Positions 6,537 to 51,768 of a stretch of 64,000 bases of DNA are shown here, piece by piece. This DNA is from Candidatus Pacearchaeota archaeon (GTDB lineage: Archaea; Nanobdellota; Nanobdellia; Pacearchaeales; GW2011-AR1). The notes beneath the pieces are model-generated. The model did no database searches and was not told the origin of the DNA. It was given only the letters and a program-made list of their open reading frames with translations. A program made the translations under genes and the position numbers. Within the stretch, counting starts at the first letter, position 1. Each line of letters opens with the position of its first letter. Location: contig CAXNIJ010000005.1 of NCBI GenBank assembly GCA_964202455.1, positions 18,171 through 82,170 on the forward strand, written 5' to 3'.

Positions 6537-6741
6537 GGCCTCGTAGCTCAGCCCGGTTAGAGTACTGGACTCTTAGTACAGTTTCTTTTTAGCCTGAGAA
6601 ACCATTGCGGTTTCTAGGTCCCAAAGAGCATTGCTCTTTGAGGAAAAAAGAAACTCTAGGTAGGTAGAAAAACTACAATGGTGGTTAGAACCTAAGTTAG
6701 GAGCAATCCAGGTGTCGGGGGTTCAAATCCCCTCGGGGCCA
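6537..6741 (+). tRNA. tRNA-Lys(CUU) with a 130-nt intron at canonical position 37/38 (intron 6576..6705)
   Basis: Hand-folded. Acceptor GGCCTCG/CGGGGCC, D arm GCTC..GAGT, anticodon stem CTGGA/TCCAG, loop CT-CTT-A|intron|A, T arm GGGGG-TTCAAAT-CCCCT, discriminator A, no encoded CCA. BHB-like geometry: helix 6570-6573 (CUCU) with 6700-6703 (GGAG), and 3-nt bulges UA|G and CA|A. Confidence 0.85.
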
Positions 6742-6843: not shown

Positions 6844-6970
6844 ATCAAAAGCACGATGCGCTACCCCCACTTAAACGTCAGAAACTGAAAGTTTCTGAGC
6901 GCCTCGAAACTCGAAGAGTTTCTTAGCCTCAAAGACATTTATCTTTGACGGCTGGAGTTTTCGTCAAGTT
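6844..6970 (-). repeat. Mosaic hairpin element, copy A (short form, reverse orientation)
   Basis: atcaaaagcacgatgcgctacccccacttaaacg + tcagaaactgaaagtttctga + gaaactcgaagagtttc + tcaaagacatttatctttga + ...cgtcaagtt. It is the reverse complement of the 3' part of copy F. Confidence 0.85.
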
Positions 6971-7102
6971 AATTATCTGTTGTCCTCATCGCTTCAGTGT
7001 CTCTTGACGCCCAATGGTTTTGCTATAGGGTTTTTAACTTTTTAAGAAAGAAGGAATATGTTAGAAAGATGGAGAGTAGATTAAAAATTAGCAAGTCCTT
7101 AA

Positions 7103-18217: not shown

Positions 18218-19717
18218 CTAATCTAAAAGCTCTTCTCGACTTGCTTGTAATATTTTTAATCTAGTGGGATGTCTAAATTTTTTAAGAACTATCATTTCAA
18301 TTTGTCTAATACGCTCTCGAGTAACGCGATATATTTCTCCTATTTCTGCAAGAGTGCGAGGAGATTCCCCATCAAGACCATATCTTAAAGTGATAATTTT
18401 TCTCTCTTGCGGTTTTAATGTGTCTAGTAAATCTCTAATATTATCTCCTACTAAAGAGTTATGTGCCCCTTCATAGGGTTTTAATTGTGAAGTATCTTCA
18501 ATTTGATTATATAGGTTCGTATCAGTATTCTCTCCAATTTGAGAATCAAGATATATTTTTTCTTTTCCAGCATTTAAAGTTCTTTTTATTGTATTTTCAT
18601 TAAATCCGGTAGCGCTTGCAATATCTTCTATTGTTGGGGTGTATCGTAATTCATCTTCTTGATGTTCTTCATATAAATTTTTTATGGCTAAATTAATCTT
18701 AGAGAGATCTTCTTGCACATGTATTGGGATACGGATACCTGAACTAGATTCTTGAAATTCTCTTCTAACTGCCTGTTTTATCCACCAGAGACCATATGTT
18801 GAAAACTTATAACCTCTGTCTACATCAAACTTTTCTATCCCCCTCATTAGTCCTATGTTGCCCATAGAGTGAAGATCTTCAATTGAAACAAATGTACCTC
18901 CTAGCTTCAATTCGAATTTTCTGGCGTAATAATAAACAAGACGTTGATTACGTTTCATTATTTCTTCCCTATTTTGATAGTAAATTGCTCGATGTCTTAA
19001 AATATCTTTTAAAATATCTGTAAGTGTTTCTGGAACAATGCCCAATTCTGCGGCAATAGCGTTATAAATTTGGATCTGTCTAGAATGAGAAAATTCGTCT
19101 CTTTTAGAAAAATCTTGCCAACTTTCTATTTTTGAAGCATATTCTATAAGTCCTGGAATATGTTCTTCCCCTTCTAATCTATTCTCTAGATTTTGCACGT
19201 TAGCATTCCAAGGAATCAGTGTTTTAGATTGCTCAAGACTATTTTTCTCTATAATTTTTGAAATGGAGGGATTGTATTTTCCTGAATTAGCCAATAATGC
19301 CCTATTTGAATAAACTAATTCATAGACTTCTGGAACAACTGAATTTGCACTATCTATTATTTCTTGAGGTTCTTTATTAAAACTGCGTCTAATCATCGTT
19401 TGAGACATTTGTGAAGAAATTCCATTTGCTCCTAATTGAGCTACACGAAATGCAGCTAGACCTACAAGAAGAGTATTTTCTGTCCAACTCTTATATGCAC
19501 TTTTAAGACTTAAAAATAAATCTCTTTCTTCTTTTGGAGTTAATATGGAATGAGCCAATAGTTTGTTCAAATAGGGAATATTTCTAACTTCTTCATCTTT
19601 TGGAATATAAACAGTATCAGATTCATATTCTTTTAATTCTTGAGATGGGGGTTCTGCAAGATCCTCAAGTAAGTAAGGGGTTTTTGGTTGATTTTCTGAA
19701 TTATCTAATTGGTTCAT
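18218..19717 (-). CDS. Bacterial-type RNA polymerase sigma-70 family protein (regions 1.2, 2, 3, 4 recognisable)
   Basis: Region 1.2-like YLNKLLAHSILTPKEERDLF. Region 2: NQRLVYYYARKF...GNIGLMRGIEKFDVDRGYKFSTYGLWWIKQAVRREF. Region 3: IRIPIHVQEDLSKIN. Region 4: ERKIITLRYGLDGESPRTLAEIGEIYRVTRERIRQIEMIVLKKFRHP. Confidence 0.9.
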   Translation of the reverse strand: MNQLDNSENQPKTPYLLEDLAEPPSQELKEYESDTVYIPKDEEVRNIPYLNKLLAHSILTPKEERDLFLSLKSAYKSWTENTLLVGLAAFRVAQLGANGISSQMSQTMIRRSFNKEPQEIIDSANSVVPEVYELVYSNRALLANSGKYNPSISKIIEKNSLEQSKTLIPWNANVQNLENRLEGEEHIPGLIEYASKIESWQDFSKRDEFSHSRQIQIYNAIAAELGIVPETLTDILKDILRHRAIYYQNREEIMKRNQRLVYYYARKFELKLGGTFVSIEDLHSMGNIGLMRGIEKFDVDRGYKFSTYGLWWIKQAVRREFQESSSGIRIPIHVQEDLSKINLAIKNLYEEHQEDELRYTPTIEDIASATGFNENTIKRTLNAGKEKIYLDSQIGENTDTNLYNQIEDTSQLKPYEGAHNSLVGDNIRDLLDTLKPQERKIITLRYGLDGESPRTLAEIGEIYRVTRERIRQIEMIVLKKFRHPTRLKILQASREELLD

Positions 19718-20558: not shown

Positions 20559-20674
20559 AATTGCAGAAAATCCTTACTTTTAAAGATTAAGGTGATAAAT
20601 ATATCTGTTTTAAGAAATTAATTAGACTATTATTTTGAATACAATAATCCATATAAACTCTAACTATGTTAATG

Positions 20675-20937
20675 AACTTGACGACTGAGAAAACTTTCAG
20701 TCATCGAAAATTTCTTATTTTCTAGTGCATCCAAGAATTCACTAAAGAATTCTCGGTGTCTTGAGGCGTTCAGGAATCTAAGATTCCTGACAAAACCGCA
20801 CCATTCAAATATTTACAATTCTTGACGACCATCAAGAACAGCAGTTCTTGAGGCTGAGAAACTCTTCGAGTTTCGAGGCGATCAGAAACTTTCAGTTTCT
20901 GACGTTTTAAGTTAAGGTAGCGCATCGTTTTTATGAT
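20675..20937 (+). repeat. Mosaic hairpin element, copy B
   Basis: Head aacttgacgactgagaaaac. About 8 hairpin modules (e.g. tcaggaatctaagattcctga, tcaagaacagcagttcttga, gaaactcttcgagtttc, tcagaaactttcagtttctga). Tail cgttttaagttaaggtagcgcatcgtttttatgat. Confidence 0.85.
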
Positions 20938-21726: not shown

Positions 21727-21769
21727 GTGAATCTTTGATTCACGACATGCTCAGGAAATCTGTTCCTGA
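21727..21769 (+). repeat. Two hairpin modules related to the mosaic family (fragment G, no conserved termini)
   Basis: gtgaatctttgattcac shares gaatctttgattc with copy F. tcaggaaatctgttcctga resembles tcaggaatctaagattcctga in copy B. Confidence 0.45.
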
Positions 21770-23842: not shown

Positions 23843-24337
23843 ATGAAATATATGAATAGCCGAGGTGTCGAGGTCCATTTTATTGATGAAGCAATCGTTT
23901 TTGGTTCGAACAATTCTAATTCCCTTCTTGATGCTTTTTCCGGAGAAAGAGAAACTCCCATTTTAAAAGCAAATACCAATCACCCATATGTCATGATCTA
24001 TCGCGTTTGTGGACCTTTGACAATGATCCCAAATATGTCTCATTGTCTTGACTTGCCTTCTGAACTTGTTGGAGAAAGATCGGCTTTACGAATGACTAGA
24101 CCAGAAGCAATACAAATAGAATGGCCCATGTGGCCGCAACCTTTCAAGATTCTTACGCCCAGAGTAAACTTCTATGATCTAGCTCCTAATTGGGGAAATA
24201 TTGCGAAAGAATATCTTGTTCTTACTGCACCACATTTTCATTTTGAACAGGGATATTGTATTGTTGGATCGGAACTTTGCAGAAAGCAATTAGAATTGTG
24301 GAATGTCAAAGATTCATCAATAGAATTTCTTCTCTGA
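23843..24337 (+). CDS. Hypothetical protein
   Basis: ORF only. Confidence 0.4.
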   Translation: MKYMNSRGVEVHFIDEAIVFGSNNSNSLLDAFSGERETPILKANTNHPYVMIYRVCGPLTMIPNMSHCLDLPSELVGERSALRMTRPEAIQIEWPMWPQPFKILTPRVNFYDLAPNWGNIAKEYLVLTAPHFHFEQGYCIVGSELCRKQLELWNVKDSSIEFLL

Positions 24338-24438
24338 TGTCTAGGAACTTGATGACTGAGAAAACATTTGGTTTTCGAGGCGTTCTGGAATAGTAGATTC
24401 CTGATGTTTCAAGGTTAGGTGACGTATCGTGCTTTGAT
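24338..24438 (+). repeat. Mosaic hairpin element, copy C (short, diverged)
   Basis: tgtctaggaacttgatgactgagaaaac...ctggaatagtagattcctga...ggttaggtgacgtatcgtgctttgat. It starts 1 nt after the stop codon at 24335-24337. Confidence 0.75.
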
Positions 24439-28519: not shown

Positions 28520-28622
28520 ATCATAAAAATGATGCGCTACCCCAACTTAAAACGTCAAAAACTGAACGTTCTCGATATTAGAGAATCCTTGACGGGTGGT
28601 GTTTACGTCAAGTTTCTTGACA
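28520..28622 (-). repeat. Mosaic hairpin element, copy D (short, reverse orientation)
   Basis: atcataaaaatgatgcgctaccccaacttaaaacg...cgtcaagtttcttgaca. It fills the whole convergent gap and overlaps the last ~20 nt of CDS 28603..29427. Confidence 0.8.
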
Positions 28623-29427
28623 TCATTAGTTTTGACTTTGCTATTTCTACGTCCGATGAGTAGGTAATTCCAATCCATCTTTCTTGTGCAGGAAGTACTC
28701 TAAATTTTGCTTTTTTTTCAACAATAAGTTCGTTCATAATTTCTGGAAGTAAACATTCTACATTTCTATTATTTTCATTTTCTTTCTTGAATTGTTCTAC
28801 TTTTTTTTGAATTTCTGAAAGTAGACGGGGTTGTAATCCAAAAATATTCATACTGCATAGAGAATTACCTTGAAATTCACTATTTTCTATTTTTTCAAGA
28901 GTTATATCAAATACTTCTTTTACTTGCGAGATTATTCCTTTTGAATCTGCATGAATTATTGCTCGATTTACTTTTCCTTCGTTAGGCAAGACCTCTTTTA
29001 GTTCGTATCCAATCATAATATTTTCTTCTGTCTGTCTAAGAAAATTTGTTGATTGTTCAAAAGATAATTGGCCGTAAAGGTCGTCACCATTACAGATAAC
29101 AAAAGGTGTTGAAAGAAAAGGTATCGCCACGTTTAACGCATCTGCAGTTCCCCAGGGTTTGTCTCTTTTTGTAGAATCATGAGTTTGAAGAGCATAGGTT
29201 ATAGGTATGCCTTTGTAATTAAATCCAAATTGTTTTTGGTAAGCTTCAATTGTTGTGGGGCCAACAATAAAAATTATTTTTGTAAAGCTTGATGAGGTTG
29301 CTTGTCTAAGAGAAATTTCCAATAATGGTTCTTTGTTTATTCCAACTGAAGCGAGAGATTTTATTCCTCCGCCGAAGCGCTTTGAAATTCCTCCAAGAAG
29401 ATAAACAAGAGTAATGTCTTTTTTCAT
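28603..29427 (-). CDS. Sugar-phosphate nucleotidyltransferase-family protein
   Basis: N-terminal LLGGISKRFGG (GxG(T/S)R-like), GTADAL, and CNGDDLY motifs of the NTP-transferase fold. Confidence 0.65.
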   Translation of the reverse strand: MKKDITLVYLLGGISKRFGGGIKSLASVGINKEPLLEISLRQATSSSFTKIIFIVGPTTIEAYQKQFGFNYKGIPITYALQTHDSTKRDKPWGTADALNVAIPFLSTPFVICNGDDLYGQLSFEQSTNFLRQTEENIMIGYELKEVLPNEGKVNRAIIHADSKGIISQVKEVFDITLEKIENSEFQGNSLCSMNIFGLQPRLLSEIQKKVEQFKKENENNRNVECLLPEIMNELIVEKKAKFRVLPAQERWIGITYSSDVEIAKSKLMMSRNLT

Positions 29428-36650: not shown

Positions 36651-36862
36651 TGTCGCGGAGCTTTACGACTGAGAGAACATTCAGTCGTCGAAAATCTCTA
36701 ATTTTCGAGTGCATCCAAGAATACGAAGAAAGAGTATTCTTGATGTCTTGAGTGCCGTCAAAGACATTAGTCTTTGAGACTAAGAAACTCTTTGAGTTTC
36801 GAGGCGATCAGAAACTGAAAGTTTCTGACGTTTAAGTTAGGGTAGCGCATCGTGCTTTTGAT
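36651..36862 (+). repeat. Mosaic hairpin element, copy E
   Basis: tgtcgcggagctttacgactgagagaac... tcaagaatacgaagaaagagtattcttga, tcaaagacattagtctttga, gaaactctttgagtttc, tcagaaactgaaagtttctga, tail cgtttaagttagggtagcgcatcgtgcttttgat. Confidence 0.85.
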
Positions 36863-40323: not shown

Positions 40324-40552
40324 TTTCTCTTTTTGCAGAAATAATCTAAGAATTTTTTTTTCCAGGGAGAGGAACATGCCACGTTTAATAATACCAAAGT
40401 CTTGTTGAAGGAGCAATTTAATCTCTTTGTCAGTATAATAGAAAACTATCTTTGACTGCCTTTTTTGAATTGGACGAAATTCTCATGTGTTCTTTCTTTA
40501 ATGAAAGAAAAATATAACTGTTATTCAGTCTGCAACTACTAGAATTATTTTA

Positions 40553-40860
40553 TGTCAAGAAACTTGACGCAAACTCCAGCCGTCAAGAATTCTTTAATTC
40601 TTGAGCGCCATCAGAAACCAAGAGTTTCTGAGGTCCAAAGCACGAGCGCTTATTCAAACCCCAACTCATCAAAAATCTTCAATCGTCAAGAATCTTTGAT
40701 TCTTGAGCGCACTCAAGAATACGAAGAAAGAGTATTCTTGATGTCTTGAGTGCCGTCAAAGATAAATGTCTTTGAGGCTAAGAAACTCTTCGAGTTTCGA
40801 GGCGATCAGAAACTTTCAGTTTCTGACGTTTAAGTTGGGGTAGCGCATCGTGCTTTTGAT
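40553..40860 (+). repeat. Mosaic hairpin element, copy F (longest, composite)
   Basis: Head tgtcaagaaacttgacg. About 9 hairpin modules. An internal inverted copy of the tail lies around 40626-40690. Tail cgtttaagttggggtagcgcatcgtgcttttgat. Confidence 0.9.
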
Positions 40861-40947
40861 TCTCTTTTTCTTTGAAGATGAAATAATCTTCTTCTGGATG
40901 GTTAATGTGAGAATATTTTAGATTTTCTAAAGTGAATGCGACAATTT

Positions 40948-41532
40948 TCATTTACGATTCTTTTCTACTTTTTTGTTAATTTTAAGAGTTATCCAGATGA
41001 GAAATACTAGGGCTAGAAGGAGAAGAAGAAAACGCCAAATGTCCGAGAGATTATCCCAGTTTCTTGTAGAGCCGTAAAATATGGCTCCAATGCCTGAGGC
41101 GATGAGAGCACTACTTACAGGATCTACGGATAGAATACCATATCCAATGAGTAAGGTGATAATGCCAATGATAAGTGCAATTATGAATACTGTTTTGTCA
41201 TGAGGTCTTCTTGCATCTTCAAAGTTTTTGTTGCAAAAGTTACATTCTTTTATAGATGAAGTGCAACCAGAATTATCGTAATCATAAATTGGAAATCCTT
41301 GACTAGCATAACATTTATCTGTTTGTTCTTGAAGAGTTTTGGAAAATGTGCAATTTACTGAGTTTATATCTGATATTTTCATAGGTGCAGTTACTGGATA
41401 TTTTCCCATGCCCTCAGTTTTACAGAAGTCTTGGTATTGCGGAGAAGGATAGAAAGCTTCGAGACCATAATTTAACATTAGGATGTAGATGATGAAGATA
41501 CCGATACCTAAGACTAGATTTTTTATATTCAT
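40948..41532 (-). CDS. Membrane protein with a Cys-rich extracytoplasmic domain
   Basis: N-terminal TM, a segment with 7 Cys, then three C-terminal TM helices. Confidence 0.45.
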   Translation of the reverse strand: MNIKNLVLGIGIFIIYILMLNYGLEAFYPSPQYQDFCKTEGMGKYPVTAPMKISDINSVNCTFSKTLQEQTDKCYASQGFPIYDYDNSGCTSSIKECNFCNKNFEDARRPHDKTVFIIALIIGIITLLIGYGILSVDPVSSALIASGIGAIFYGSTRNWDNLSDIWRFLLLLLALVFLIWITLKINKKVEKNRK

Positions 41533-42821: not shown

Positions 42822-43155
42822 AAAAATTAAAATGGTTTTTGAAGATCAAAAAGAAATTATTATTTCTTTTTTTTCTTAGTTATAGTTTTTCTTTTTGCAG
42901 CCATTTTGTTTCCTTTGTATATTTAATATGTACAACTTATATATAAACATATGCCGAATTTTTCTAAAAATAAGAAATTTAAAAACTACTGAAGTTATTT
43001 ATCGACGGAGAAAATTTATTAAGATTTTTAGAATTTTTTCAATATTAAGAAACTAAATATAAAAAAAATCTTAATTTTTTTGGCTCTAAAAAACCTTTTA
43101 GGTTTTTGGGACCAGAAAAGCTCTGCTTTTCTTGGTTTAAAAGTCAGAATAGGAA

Positions 43156-43166
43156 CTTTTAAATAA
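43156..43166 (+). promoter_or_regulatory. TATA-box-like cttttaaataa, about 28 nt upstream of tRNA-Asn
   Basis: Read directly. Confidence 0.5.
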
Positions 43167-48908: not shown

Positions 48909-49027
48909 TGAAAGTAATTCTTCCCGCACGAAATGCAGCGTGCGGTTCTCGCAGAGCATAGCTCCGCGGAACTATTCAACTCTTGCGAGTTGAAAGTAAT
49001 TCTTCCCGCACGAAATGCAGCGTGCGG
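48909..49027 (-). repeat. 37-bp direct repeat x2 (48909-48945 and 48991-49027) containing the 3' end of tRNA-Gly plus its trailer
   Basis: tgaaagtaattcttcccgcacgaaatgcagcgtgcgg occurs twice, 82 bp apart. The 45-bp spacer is itself palindromic (ctcgcagag...ctcttgcgag, tccgcgga). Confidence 0.9.
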
Positions 49028-49177: not shown

Positions 49178-49251
49178 GATCCCGTAGCTCAGCTGGTTAG
49201 AGCGCTGCTCTGATACGGCAGAGGTCCCAGGTTCAAATCCTGGCGGGATCA
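49178..49251 (+). tRNA. tRNA-Ile(GAU)
   Basis: Hand-folded. GATCCCG/CGGGATC acceptor, GCTC..GAGC, CTGCT-CTGATAC-GGCAG, CCAGG-TTCAAAT-CCTGG. No CCA. Confidence 0.9.
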
Positions 49252-49342
49252 CTTCTTATCTTTCAGGATTTGAACACTGAGAAACTCGAAGAGTTTCACG
49301 GCCTTCGGTTTCCTCACCAAAGGAATCCTGGCGGGATCACTT
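49236..49342 (+). repeat. 19-bp direct repeat of the tRNA-Ile 3' end (49236-49254 and 49324-49342) flanking a 69-bp hairpin-rich insert
   Basis: aatcctggcgggatcactt occurs twice. The insert starts with an inverted copy of the T-arm (caggatttgaac, 49264-49275) and contains gaaactcgaagagtttc, which is identical to a module of mosaic copy A. Confidence 0.9.
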
Positions 49343-49498
49343 TGGCTGGTTTTTTATAAACCATTCAATTGCGTGATCAAGTTTCTCATCGTTAGATTCA
49401 CCATCTCTAAACATTGCCTGCCAATCTTTGTCTTGATTGTCTCCGACTTTAATGCTCTTGAAGTGAAGGGCTAAAAGTCCCCCAAAATATGCTTACCC

Positions 49499-50636: not shown

Positions 50637-51527
50637 TTAAACTTTTCTATGGTAAAAGCTCTGTAGAAAGTAAACCTCTCTAATGCAGAGGTTTACCAAT
50701 TTCTCTGCATTATATGCGATGAATCTGAAGAGCAATTCATTCTTCTGTGAATCAAACTTCTTACTGTAAATTCTATATCCAAATCTTCTCTTTACAGCAG
50801 AGAAAATACTTTCAACAATTACTCTCTGTCTGTAAATCTCCGACGGAAAATTACGTCTTAGTTTCTTTCTATGAATTCCATGCGTTCTATAAACTGGAAC
50901 ATTCTTCCATCGAAGAGGTGTAATCAATCGTGTTCCTATTGCAGAAGCTAATTCATGATTCTTCTCAGAATCATACGCTTTATCAGCCAAGAAAGCAGTT
51001 ATAGGTAACTGCTTTGATGATTCCATCATCAAATGAGGAACATCAATATTTTCATTCCTTTTCTTACGTCGTAATCTCACAGCAATTATCAATCTTCGTT
51101 TTACTTCGACTGCAACGTTCGTCTGCATAAAACGATTGCGTTCTCCCGCAATCGTGCAGAAGTATGGACTTCTGCTGTTTAAATTGAAGCCAGTTCTATC
51201 AATCGCTACAAGACTTGCATTATTACTCCTTACCATTTTAGCAATAATTGCCTCAAGAAAGGTTTGCTTTACTCTCAAAGCAAACTTATTTATCGTCGTA
51301 AAATGGATAGCTCTCGCTAGGTGTAACTCATTTTGGACGAGCGAAAGAAACGAGGGCATATCCCTCAGCTTTTTACCTTCCAACTGCATCAGCACTTGGA
51401 TAACAATGTGTTGCTCGTTGGAGAACACATTGTTTTTCTTCTTGCTAAAGCTTCTCGGTATGCGAGAAGCTCTAACTCCAGATTTTACCCTCTGGATAAG
51501 TTTTTTATATCTATCCTCTTTGTTCAT
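50637..51527 (-). CDS. DDE transposase (IS4/IS5 superfamily)
   Basis: D (VAIDRTGF), D (FLADKAYDS), E...K (VIVESIFSAVKRRFG). The ORF reads through the left inverted repeat and stops 20 nt outside it. ATG 51527 or GTG 51536. Confidence 0.85.
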   Translation of the reverse strand: MNKEDRYKKLIQRVKSGVRASRIPRSFSKKKNNVFSNEQHIVIQVLMQLEGKKLRDMPSFLSLVQNELHLARAIHFTTINKFALRVKQTFLEAIIAKMVRSNNASLVAIDRTGFNLNSRSPYFCTIAGERNRFMQTNVAVEVKRRLIIAVRLRRKKRNENIDVPHLMMESSKQLPITAFLADKAYDSEKNHELASAIGTRLITPLRWKNVPVYRTHGIHRKKLRRNFPSEIYRQRVIVESIFSAVKRRFGYRIYSKKFDSQKNELLFRFIAYNAEKLVNLCIREVYFLQSFYHRKV

Positions 51528-51597
51528 ATTGACCACCTCCCTTTGATGTCAATAGTTAAATGGGGTGGTCACTTCTTTAGAAACTTTCTACAGAGCT
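50657..51597 (-). mobile_element. Intact insertion sequence (IS4/IS5-superfamily DDE transposase), 941 bp
   Basis: Perfect 15-bp terminal inverted repeats agctctgtagaaagt (50657-50671; reverse complement at 51583-51597). Flanked by the 9-bp direct repeat tatggtaaa (50648-50656 and 51598-51606). Confidence 0.85.
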
Positions 51598-51768
51598 TAT
51601 GGTAAATTTAATTAGATTTTGAAGGAAATTTGGCGTTAATTATCTGTTAACCCAAATTCTCTTCTGCGGTGTTTAGCTATTATCATTATGATTATTGATT
51701 GCGACACGAGGTTATGTCGAAGGAGAAAGATTTAAATAGAAAAATTGATTGGATATGTTAGAAAAAGA

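Follow-up and report, generated by a model that had tools for sequence, protein, structure and literature searches.

An interspersed family of palindromic hairpin-module repeats in a narrow clade of Pacearchaeota

The stretch of DNA considered here (the window) comprises 64,000 nucleotides of contig CAXNIJ010000005.1 from the Candidatus Pacearchaeota assembly GCA_964202455.1, and belongs to a metagenome contig of 137 kb (ENA ERZ27280297 k141_904697). It carries archaeal genes, among them those for MCM, eRF1, TFIIE-alpha, L15e, NAC and Sec61-beta; the closest homologues of its MCM are annotated as Pacearchaeota or Nanoarchaeota. Dispersed among these genes are six elements, the longest of them at 40552-40860, which a preliminary description had reported as a family with a common head, a common tail and a variable number of short hairpins (modules) in between. 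The six are genuine copies of one interspersed non-coding palindromic repeat family with modular hairpins. All of them are present, with the revised coordinates given below, and the segment at 21727-21769, earlier described as a fragment without termini, indeed consists of two solitary module-type hairpins. The members of the family in the window, together with the solitary modules, are as follows (the two domains of the underlying scaffold are described further below):

40552..40860, + strand: expanded copy of 309 nt, which keeps most of the two-domain scaffold; its head is ATGTCAAGAAACTTGACG
36651..36862, + strand: copy with a degenerate head and no 5' half of domain 2; its last ~150 nt (five modules and the tail) are common with the 40552 copy
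20666..20937, + strand: copy in a divergent intergenic region, with seven hairpins; its head is the variant ATGTTAATGAACTTGACG, its tail a T-rich variant, and the 5' half of its domain 2 is degenerate
6844..6972, - strand: short copy with the partial head AACTTGACGAAAACTCCAGCC, fused directly to the last three modules and the tail
24337..24438, + strand: short decayed copy in which a head is followed by two modules and a tail, all three of them degenerate; it begins on the final base of the upstream gene's TGA
28520..28623, - strand: short decayed copy occupying precisely the space that separates two convergent genes
21727..21769, + strand: two solitary modules, GTGAATC..GATTCAC and TCAGGAA..TTCCTGA, with neither head nor tail
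49281..49297, - strand: solitary module GAAACTC-ttc-GAGTTTC, identical to a module of the family, 3' of a tRNA-Ile

Examination of the parts of the element shows that they recur far above the expectation from shuffled sequences (0.00-0.14 matches): the 22-mer of the tail has four matches in the window at ≤3 mismatches, the 18-mer of the head has four, and the last module has five (nine matches when counted strand-wise). The common head and tail are upheld for the family, the head of the 36651 copy and the tail of the 24337 copy being degenerate. BLAST of all copies against the window recovered no seventh copy, and the sole extra match is the solitary module at 49281-49297. The modules are as first portrayed, namely perfect stems of 6-10 bp closing loops of 3-9 nt, mostly of the form TCARRAAY...RTTYYTGA and joined by GC-rich linkers of 5-6 nt (e.g. 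GCGCCA, GGCGA and CTGCCA). They are gained and lost between copies, which vary in length from 102 to 309 nt; the number of modules per copy is 2-8 (2-3 in the short decayed copies), as against the 3-9 first proposed. The copies are also richer in GC than their surroundings (38-43% as against about 34% for the window), and the 309-nt copy has a minimum free energy (MFE) of -125.7 kcal/mol (z = -11.6 relative to shuffles). Their intergenic position holds for the family, with two local departures: the gene upstream of the 28520 copy runs 21 nt into the head and ends at its TAA, and the 24337 copy shares the one stop-codon base listed above. The 36651 copy is situated just 5' of the MCM promoter, in the same place as a copy in a second Pacearchaeota genome (L051:9733-9955; loci other than the window are cited by such L numbers), and the 6844 copy lies 3' of a winged helix-turn-helix gene and is convergent with an intron-containing tRNA.

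As had been noted earlier, no reading frame is common to the copies, the frames being broken. A small protein starting at the ATG of the head was considered, with a frame of 34-40 codons in what we term type-A copies; this frame is broken in many copies (5-30 codons) and shifted in the type-B copies, and given that the differences in the stems are compensatory rather than synonymous, this reading is rejected. Three genes called in public annotation, with products of 51, 44 and 57 aa, fall mostly inside copies (L043:8912-9067, L043:16671-16805 and L017:11079-11252, which correspond to window positions 20770-20925, 28529-28663 and 40778-40951) and are probably spurious open reading frames (ORFs) made by the repeat. 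A further hairpin at 1202-1222 with ATGTCAAGAA was dismissed as a family member, as it is inside a coding region and its likeness is probably due to chance.

The anatomy of the family can be read from the 40552 copy, in which two modules replace the apex and the 3' strand of domain 1. Domain 2 comes next and is complete, six modules being lodged in its apical loop, and the tail ends the copy. Its parts are:

40554..40568, + strand: head hairpin GTCAAG-aaa-CTTGAC, an alternative pairing to the basal helix P1 (TCAAGGAAC/GTTCCTTGA) of the compact unit
40583..40631, + strand: two P1-like modules, TCAAGAATT..AATTCTTGA and TCAGAAAC..GTTTCTGA, standing where domain 1 would have its apex
40637..40666, + strand: 5' half of domain 2 in the MFE structure; the same segments are seen in compact copies
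40637-40649, + strand: strand of the lower helix of domain 2, AAAGCACGAGCGC (MFE structure)
40650-40658, + strand: conserved internal loop of domain 2, TTATTCAAA (MFE structure)
40659-40666, + strand: arm of the upper helix of domain 2, CCCCAACT (MFE structure)
40686..40826, + strand: six modules in the apical loop of domain 2; the insertion opens with CATCA after the 5' arm and closes with GACG before TTTAAG
40833..40860, + strand: 3' half of domain 2, the "tail", with the arm AGTTGGGG, unpaired TA, GCGC-A-TCGTGCTTT (with a conserved bulged A) and the terminal TGAT; it holds the T-run

In the MFE structure of this copy GCACGAGCGC (40640-40649) pairs with GCGC-A-TCGTGC (40843-40853), and the arm at 40659-40666 pairs with AGTTGGGG (40833-40840). 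Given that both of these helices of domain 2 enclose the six modules, the modules represent an expansion of its apical loop. The resemblance between the head and the inner tail, which had been taken for a weak inverted repeat, is likewise not terminal in nature: TTTAAGTTGGGG forms a hairpin as the 3' arm, together with CCCCAACT at 40659-40666 as the 5' arm. The head hairpin itself covaries, and reads GTCGG/CCGAC in type-B copies.

Compact copies of 119-122 nt are found on the window's own contig, in L051, in the metagenome-assembled genome (MAG) "Nanoarchaeota archaeon H32-bin084_1" and in metagenome contigs. These have the form ATG-TCAAGGAAC-TTGACTAAAA-CTCCAGC-TTTTAA-GCTGGAG-TY-GTTCCTTGA-GC-ATCCAAAGCACGAGCGC-TTATTCAAA-CCCCAAC-TTTTAA-GTTGGGG-TA-GCGC-A-TCGTGCTTTTGAT, starting with (TT)ATGTC and ending with an oligo-T (T4-T8) followed by GAT. 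The unit is constituted of two domains of like design. In each, a lower helix (9-17 bp) leads via an internal loop to an upper hairpin (7-9 bp); the loop is asymmetric, its 5' strand having about 10 nt and its 3' strand 2 nt. The two-domain fold has a z of -8.0. A canonical copy occurs on the window's contig at L047:18980-19101, 4.2 kb past the end of the window. This compact two-domain unit of ~122 nt is the ancestral or basic form of the family, and most of the copies in the window are its expanded or decayed derivatives. Thus, the arrangement of head, modules and tail that had been proposed as the basic architecture gives way to a compact scaffold, with the modules as secondary expansions in its loops and the tail as the 3' strand of domain 2 (a scan for bacterial-type promoters and terminators sees this tail as a 5-bp hairpin followed by a T-run). 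Eight copies are present on the contig, one of which is canonical and two of which keep most of the scaffold (40552 and L045:804-1050); the remaining five lack domain 1, the 5' half of domain 2 or both, as a result of internal deletion.

Across genomes the modules recur at three sites, namely the linker and the apical loops of domains 1 and 2. In the apical loop of domain 2 the insertion point, ...T[CATCA...GAGG or GACG]TTTAAG..., holds two modules each in L001:6956-7126 and L051:9733-9955; modules in the linker are seen in L001:245-416 and again in L051:9733-9955, and the apex of domain 1 in L022 carries an AT-rich insert of 150 nt. All modules resemble the basal helix P1 together with a GC-rich linker (TCAAGGAAC...GTTCCTTGA-GCNNNN), and the best account of their growth is that the P1 hairpin unit is duplicated or undergoes nested insertion. 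Judging from the solitary modules at 21727-21769 and 49281-49297, and from similar hairpins within a tRNA intron (6595-6643), the hairpin module may also spread alone.

Several tRNA genes in the window have features of their own. The intron just mentioned, of ~130 nt, belongs to a tRNA at 6537-6741 (+) with the anticodon loop CUU (Lys), which was missed by ARAGORN and scores 45 bits with Rfam; the two module-style hairpins in it are ctGAGAAAC..GTTTCtagg (6595-6617) and cCAAAGAGC..GCTCTTTGagg (6621-6643). At 49178-49345 (+) a tRNA-Ile precedes a segment complementary to the T-arm of this tRNA, after which comes the family module at 49281-49297; a direct repeat of the tRNA 3' end, AATCCTGGCGGGATCAC, lies at 49326-49342 and could be an att-like duplication or the remnant of an alternative 3' half. 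Just 5' of the tRNA-Asn gene are four AT-rich perfect hairpins (43061-43163, +), at a place where H32-bin084_1 has a copy of the family (L049:16028-16146). Finally, a 30-nt direct repeat at 48918-48947 and 48998-49027, 80 nt apart, comprises the 3' end of a tRNA-Gly(CCC) on the minus strand and its flank, and looks like a remnant of integration at the tRNA.

A covariance model of the compact unit (R1), with 15 distinct copies aligned for the statistics of the pairs, showed 96.8% of the cells to be paired, as against 35-45% in slid controls. Consistent with the compensatory stem changes that the preliminary description had asked to be sought, 19 of the 44 pairs are changed on both sides, partly through exchange of cassettes. 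The pairing is of an unusual kind for RNA: among 618 cells the non-canonical ones are 3 G-U, 9 A-C and 11 other mismatches, the compact copies have no G-U pairs at all, and the MFE of the sense and antisense strands differ by <7 kcal/mol and mostly by <1. Furthermore, the loops of homologous modules can be exactly inverted (ttc vs gaa, with 0 mismatches to the reverse complement and 3 in direct comparison), as in the last module of the 36651 copy (gaa) relative to that of 40552 (ttc). The hairpin ACCACACCT..AGGTGTGGT serves as domain 2 in L010, whereas type-B copies have it as domain 1, and at L051:13725 two subfamilies have contributed to one chimeric hairpin. Together the perfect strand-symmetric palindromes, the flips and the exchange of cassettes point to DNA hairpins (single-stranded or cruciform, with template switching) and not to a trans-acting RNA, and the palindromes might be maintained or "corrected" at the level of DNA by hairpin or cruciform formation, template switching or gene conversion.

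A different view of the same structure is that the modules are arrays of palindromic double-stranded sites to which a chromosomal protein, such as a nucleoid, segregation or transcription factor, would bind as a dimer, with the half-site TCAAGRAAY. The modules are indeed perfect palindromes with a common TCARRAAY half-site, their number per locus is variable and the fold is strand-symmetric. However, the stems diverge (CTCCAGC, CCACACC, CCTCGGC, CTGCGGC and others) with their complementarity kept, which indicates selection for pairing rather than for sequence, and the scaffold is directional, with long-range helices spanning up to about 190 nt; binding-site arrays are hence a very improbable account of the family. 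Somewhat less improbable, though still unlikely, is a structured RNA, which the preliminary description had put on a par with a mobile repeat. Here the family would be the genes for a trans-acting sRNA (small RNA) of ~120 nt, the internal loops of which bind protein or nucleic acid, and the copies in the window would be expanded paralogues or pseudogenes. The retention of the scaffold with compensatory changes across genomes and the conservation of the unpaired loops TTGACTAAAA and TTATTCAAA and of the bulged A speak for such genes. On the other side are the lack of G-U tolerance (no excess over A-C) and the strand-symmetric fold, the decay of many copies, and the absence of a match in Rfam: across the window only tRNAs reached the gathering score, and the best hit of the compact copy, with E allowed up to 10, had E = 3.4. 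C/D-box, H/ACA and K-turn motifs were absent from the head, tail and internal loops on inspection by eye. The distribution of the copies and their surroundings, to which we now turn, bear on these genes as well.

Searches with the tail, covering one genome per species as well as a metagenome collection, confirmed that the family extends beyond the window. Among the genomes real matches were found only in the MAG H32-bin084_1, and the metagenomes added six more AT-rich contigs with the element; further copies are those on the window's own contig and in L051. The family is restricted to a narrow clade of tiny-genome Pacearchaeota (GTDB Nanoarchaeota, DPANN). Within it the density is high: the window's contig has 8 copies over about 77 kb, L051 has 7 over 22 kb, and H32-bin084_1 has 2 over 18 kb and another 3 over 8 kb. 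Families of RNA genes are far less dense than one copy per 3-10 kb, and the syntenic loci of relatives in which MCM is 78-79% identical (L054, 22 kb; L056, 13 kb) are free of copies; both facts tell against the sRNA genes.

The order of genes from HhH-GPD to Big_13 is kept in the window, in L049 (H32-bin084_1) and in L051, yet the occupancy by the element differs at 5 of the 7 intergenic sites; those occupied in common, "upstream of MCM" and "after the OB-fold gene", are so in the window and L051 only. At L049:4841-4962 a copy fills the space between IleRS and a convergent gene; in the window and L051 the stop codons of these two genes overlap by 4 nt. Elsewhere, the copies in L010 and L011 differ by 1 nt in 121 and have unrelated flanks. 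The family thus spreads or turns over among intergenic sites at the 3' ends of genes. Short-read (Logan) contigs tend to terminate in copies (L018, L044 and L050, the last with a partial copy at each end). A 13.5-kb Joint Genome Institute contig has the same copy with an identical upstream flank at both of its ends (L052:3-124 and L052:13341-13462), which is probably an assembly artefact of the repeat. In IMG/VR the patterns of the head and the tail matched by chance alone, and none of the loci concerned gave a hit with the covariance model, so that a viral carrier is discounted.

Of 15 classifiable copies, 11 are 3' of a co-oriented gene, and the regions concerned are convergent in 7, tandem in 5 and divergent in 3 cases. 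The distance from the stop codon to the copy is often 0-10 nt, and three genes end inside the head. In archaea oligo-T signals the termination of transcription. Given that the element ends in T4-T8 followed by GAT, a copy 3' of a gene brings with it an archaeal-type termination signal, and its oligo-T probably acts as a terminator here. Copies may be tolerated because they are placed after stop codons, where they would supply stops in two frames and a 3' oligo-T terminator and be co-transcribed as hairpins of the 3' untranslated region (3' UTR).

The upstream sides of the copies are less uniform. No TATA box at a fixed distance was found in the 50 nt upstream of 23 copies, TATA-like boxes being variable or absent and many of these regions being coding. 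The sharp boundaries from ATGTC to the T-run, a few copies with a TATA-like box centred near -26 to -30 (L047:18980 and L001:7126) and the three copies on the window's contig in divergent regions, which could be driven only by a promoter of their own, would suit the sRNA genes; the lack of a fixed-distance promoter and the many heads abutting coding sequence do not. A related possibility is that the copies are SINE-like (short interspersed nuclear element), i.e. retroposed from one or a few master sRNA genes and extending exactly from the transcription start to the oligo-T terminator. With this agree the sharp boundaries combined with unrelated flanks (L010 vs L011), the well-placed TATA box of the best-preserved copy in the window's genome and the better conservation of 3' than of 5' parts in the window copies. 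However, the heads are kept, so that the losses are internal deletions and not 5' truncations, no reverse transcriptase is encoded in the loci examined, and the strand-symmetric perfect palindromes with their loop flips point to processes at the level of DNA, which together make retroposition very unlikely.

If the family is instead a repeat that moves as DNA, its ends should bear on the manner of its movement. The flanks of 23 copies contain no direct repeats that might be target-site duplications (TSDs), and the ends no terminal inverted repeats (TIRs). Immediately 5' of ATGTC, T occupies the two adjoining positions in 21 and 17 of the 23 copies, respectively (p = 1e-8 and 9e-5); either the unit begins with TT or it lands in T-rich sequence. 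The orientation of the copies relative to GC skew agrees at four loci and disagrees at three.

Two DDE transposases are encoded on the window's contig. One is part of an insertion sequence (IS) of the IS4/5 type at 50656-51598, with a DDE_Tnp_1 transposase of 299 aa on the minus strand, a perfect 16-bp TIR AAGCTCTGTAGAAAGT and a 7-bp duplication, ATGGTAA; the other, of the IS240/IS6 type, is at L045:2542-3756, about 2.6 kb 5' of the start of the window. Their presence, and the size of the element, might suggest a miniature inverted-repeat transposable element (MITE) moved by the transposase of a resident IS, as had been considered at the outset. However, the ends of the family, ATGTCAAGG... 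and ...GCTTTTGAT, are not inverted repeats when the head is compared with the reverse-complemented tail, and there are no TSDs; the TIR of the IS4/5-type element, with its 7-bp duplication, is unrelated to the hairpin family, and no inverted repeat matching the family ends occurs around the IS6-type gene. A classical TIR-bearing MITE is thus effectively refuted, and of the analogies offered by the preliminary description that with the repetitive extragenic palindromic (REP) sequences and bacterial interspersed mosaic elements (BIMEs) is the best available. Another kind of mobile palindrome is the attC site of integrons, in which the 5' and 3' ends pair with each other (R''/R') and which follows mobile cassette ORFs in an array beside intI; here the ends sit in two separate domains and the neighbours are syntenic housekeeping genes (eRF1, MCM and IleRS), and attC was rejected.

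PATEs (palindrome-associated transposable elements), e.g. those of Haloquadratum, are archaeal non-autonomous elements without TIRs or TSDs and with a hairpin at the 3' end. The family could be PATE-like, i.e. a non-autonomous derivative of IS200/IS605 with the head domain as left end and the tail domain as right end, moved by "peel-and-paste" through TnpA, the right end perhaps being a scaffold for a TnpB guide RNA. The lack of TIRs and TSDs, the hairpins on the same strand at both ends, the conserved bulged base in the terminal stem and the T-rich 5' flank, with TT(T/G/A)AT before GTC akin to the element's own 3' end TTGAT, are all in keeping with this. However, the loci examined have no full-length tnpA/tnpB element with the ends of the family, the first hairpin is preceded by only 2-3 nt, the orientation has no consistent relation to GC skew, and the T-rich flank could be part of the element or reflect terminator-rich gene ends; we regard such a derivation as improbable, to about the same degree as the sRNA genes.

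In light of the above, we propose that the family is a selfish REP/BIME- or BOX-like palindromic repeat, which acts via DNA hairpins and is co-transcribed in 3' UTRs with its own oligo-T; this we consider fairly probable, and that it is an interspersed palindromic repeat prone to turnover highly probable. Its copies would be made in trans by an enzyme that recognizes the folded single strand, the prime suspect being a Y1 (HUH) transposase of the RAYT (REP-associated tyrosine transposase) or IS200 type, as for bacterial REPs. The copies grow as P1-like modules accumulate at the three sites named above (the linker and both apical loops) and decay through internal deletion, and inserted copies would be co-transcribed as stable 3'-UTR hairpins. 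Spread by a Y1 transposase as such is a tentative suggestion that we hold to be doubtful. K07491, "REP-associated tyrosine transposase", has been reported in a complete Pacearchaeales genome and is the only transposase KEGG orthologue with strict matches in 256 Nanobdellota proteomes (bioRxiv 10.64898/2026.05.13.725050); we take this as a lead to the enzyme and not as a test.

Several observations weigh against the above proposal. First, no transposase or nuclease is linked to the elements: Pfam searches of about 77 kb of the contig and related loci yielded the two DDE transposases only (in the neighbouring ORFs of unknown function they found nothing transposase-like), and a phmmer search with Escherichia coli RayT of about 400 kb of archaeal DNA gave no match. 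Second, no exact pair of empty and filled sites was recovered, the IleRS and eRF1 sites being too diverged for junctions; at the IleRS site, where the flanks are also diverged, we infer insertion by parsimony, the junction itself not being seen. Third, the conserved asymmetric internal loops and the bulged A also fit an RNA-protein complex, and much of the covariation counted is exchange of cassettes among few subfamilies rather than many independent events. Fourth, the hairpins of the family run head-to-tail in a directional scaffold, its domains being direct repeats of one architecture, and do not alternate as in BIMEs and REPINs (REP doublets forming hairpins), and there is no clean unpaired GTAG/CGTC tag, the modules being flanked as GCNN-TCA...TGA-GSNC with the TC of CGTC paired.

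A wider reading, that this is the first REP/RAYT-type system in Archaea, joins several parts into one claim: the element, folded as single-stranded DNA, would be copied by a Y1 transposase that has been domesticated, would have come to occupy a few percent of certain Pacearchaeota genomes of ~1 Mb and would grow by nesting its own basal hairpin, its hairpins would also have seeded solitary modules, including those inside the tRNA intron, and it would furnish terminators or 3'-UTR hairpins for many host housekeeping genes. Taken as a whole this is unlikely, more so than the Y1 mechanism on its own. To our knowledge, REP-like systems and RAYT transposases have so far been studied in bacteria alone, and such elements are undescribed in archaea. 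If true, an archaeal counterpart with a self-nesting architecture would widen the REP/RAYT class and give a function to the RAYT-type gene lately noticed in Pacearchaeales.

As had been suspected, the family belongs to no recognised class, being without a match in Rfam and undescribed in the literature that we searched on Pacearchaeota and DPANN repeats. Mosaic interspersed palindromic repeats are a known kind of element; the DPANN host and the self-nesting architecture are new. Beyond the preliminary description the present analysis adds the compact two-domain ancestor, the anatomy of expansion in loops, the restriction to a clade with turnover and the DNA-type palindromy. DPANN archaea are regarded as extremely streamlined, yet a non-coding repeat occurs here every 3-10 kb and is missing at the syntenic loci of close relatives, so that the family offers an instance in which the invasion of a minimal genome by a selfish palindromic element can be dated. 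In practical terms, the copies break short-read assemblies, give rise to spurious ORF calls and alter the 3' ends of genes, and the covariance model R1 can be used to mask or type them. Apart from the repeat, an ORF of 499 aa at 18218-19717 (-), amidst archaeal housekeeping genes (L15e and topoisomerase), contains bacterial sigma-70 regions 2, 3 and 4 (Pfam E = 1e-14, 2e-9 and 4e-15), and a sigma-factor homologue is unexpected in a DPANN archaeon.

Comparison with known repeat systems places the family closest to REP, BIME and REPIN sequences. In common with these it has short palindromes with complementary stems in high copy number, an extragenic location mostly 3' of genes and between convergent or unidirectional ORFs, mosaics with conserved linkers, a patchy lineage-specific spread and no TIRs or TSDs. 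It differs in its archaeal (DPANN) host, in being a directional 122-nt two-domain unit as opposed to a 20-40-nt palindrome, and in that no cognate RAYT was identified in the loci scanned. By definition, a REP has an unpaired GTAG (or CGTC) tetranucleotide at one end of the palindrome (PMC3733652). In the present family each element has a single GTAG, which lies in the tail (GGTAGCGC) and has GTGG and GTGA as its variants. With neither an unpaired tag nor an alternating orientation, the family should not be filed as a member of the REPs.

In the Rickettsia palindromic elements (RPEs) and the CGTC-tagged REPs the stems measure 8-9 bp and the loops 4-5 nt (Di Nocera et al. 2013, PMC3733652). Like the present family, they are palindromes proliferating in small reduced genomes, have no dedicated transposase known and reach into the ends of coding regions. 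Several modules of the family also start with CGTCA, as in CGTC REPs; however, the latter have an unpaired tag and a CCA-like tail, whereas the TC of the family is in the stem and its tail is another one. RPEs, moreover, are often in-frame within genes, whereas the family stays at gene ends. The PATEs and the ends of IS200/IS605 elements share with the family the archaeal setting, the lack of TIRs and TSDs and the 3' hairpin, to which the family adds subterminal same-strand hairpins at both ends. They differ in that no parent IS with the ends of the family was seen in the loci examined, and we know of no description of PATEs growing by the addition of modules.

The BOX elements of Streptococcus pneumoniae, with the structure boxA-(boxB)n-boxC, are intergenic, fold strongly and vary in length. 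The family appears analogous to them in its conserved head and tail modules, the variable number of internal ones, the strong intergenic folding and the change of length via gain and loss of modules. No sequence relation to boxA, boxB or boxC is claimed, the likeness being one of analogy alone. The two differ in host and presumed mobilisation, and also in construction, in that the internal modules of the archaeal family are single perfect hairpins derived from its own basal helix and set within the loops of a larger fold.

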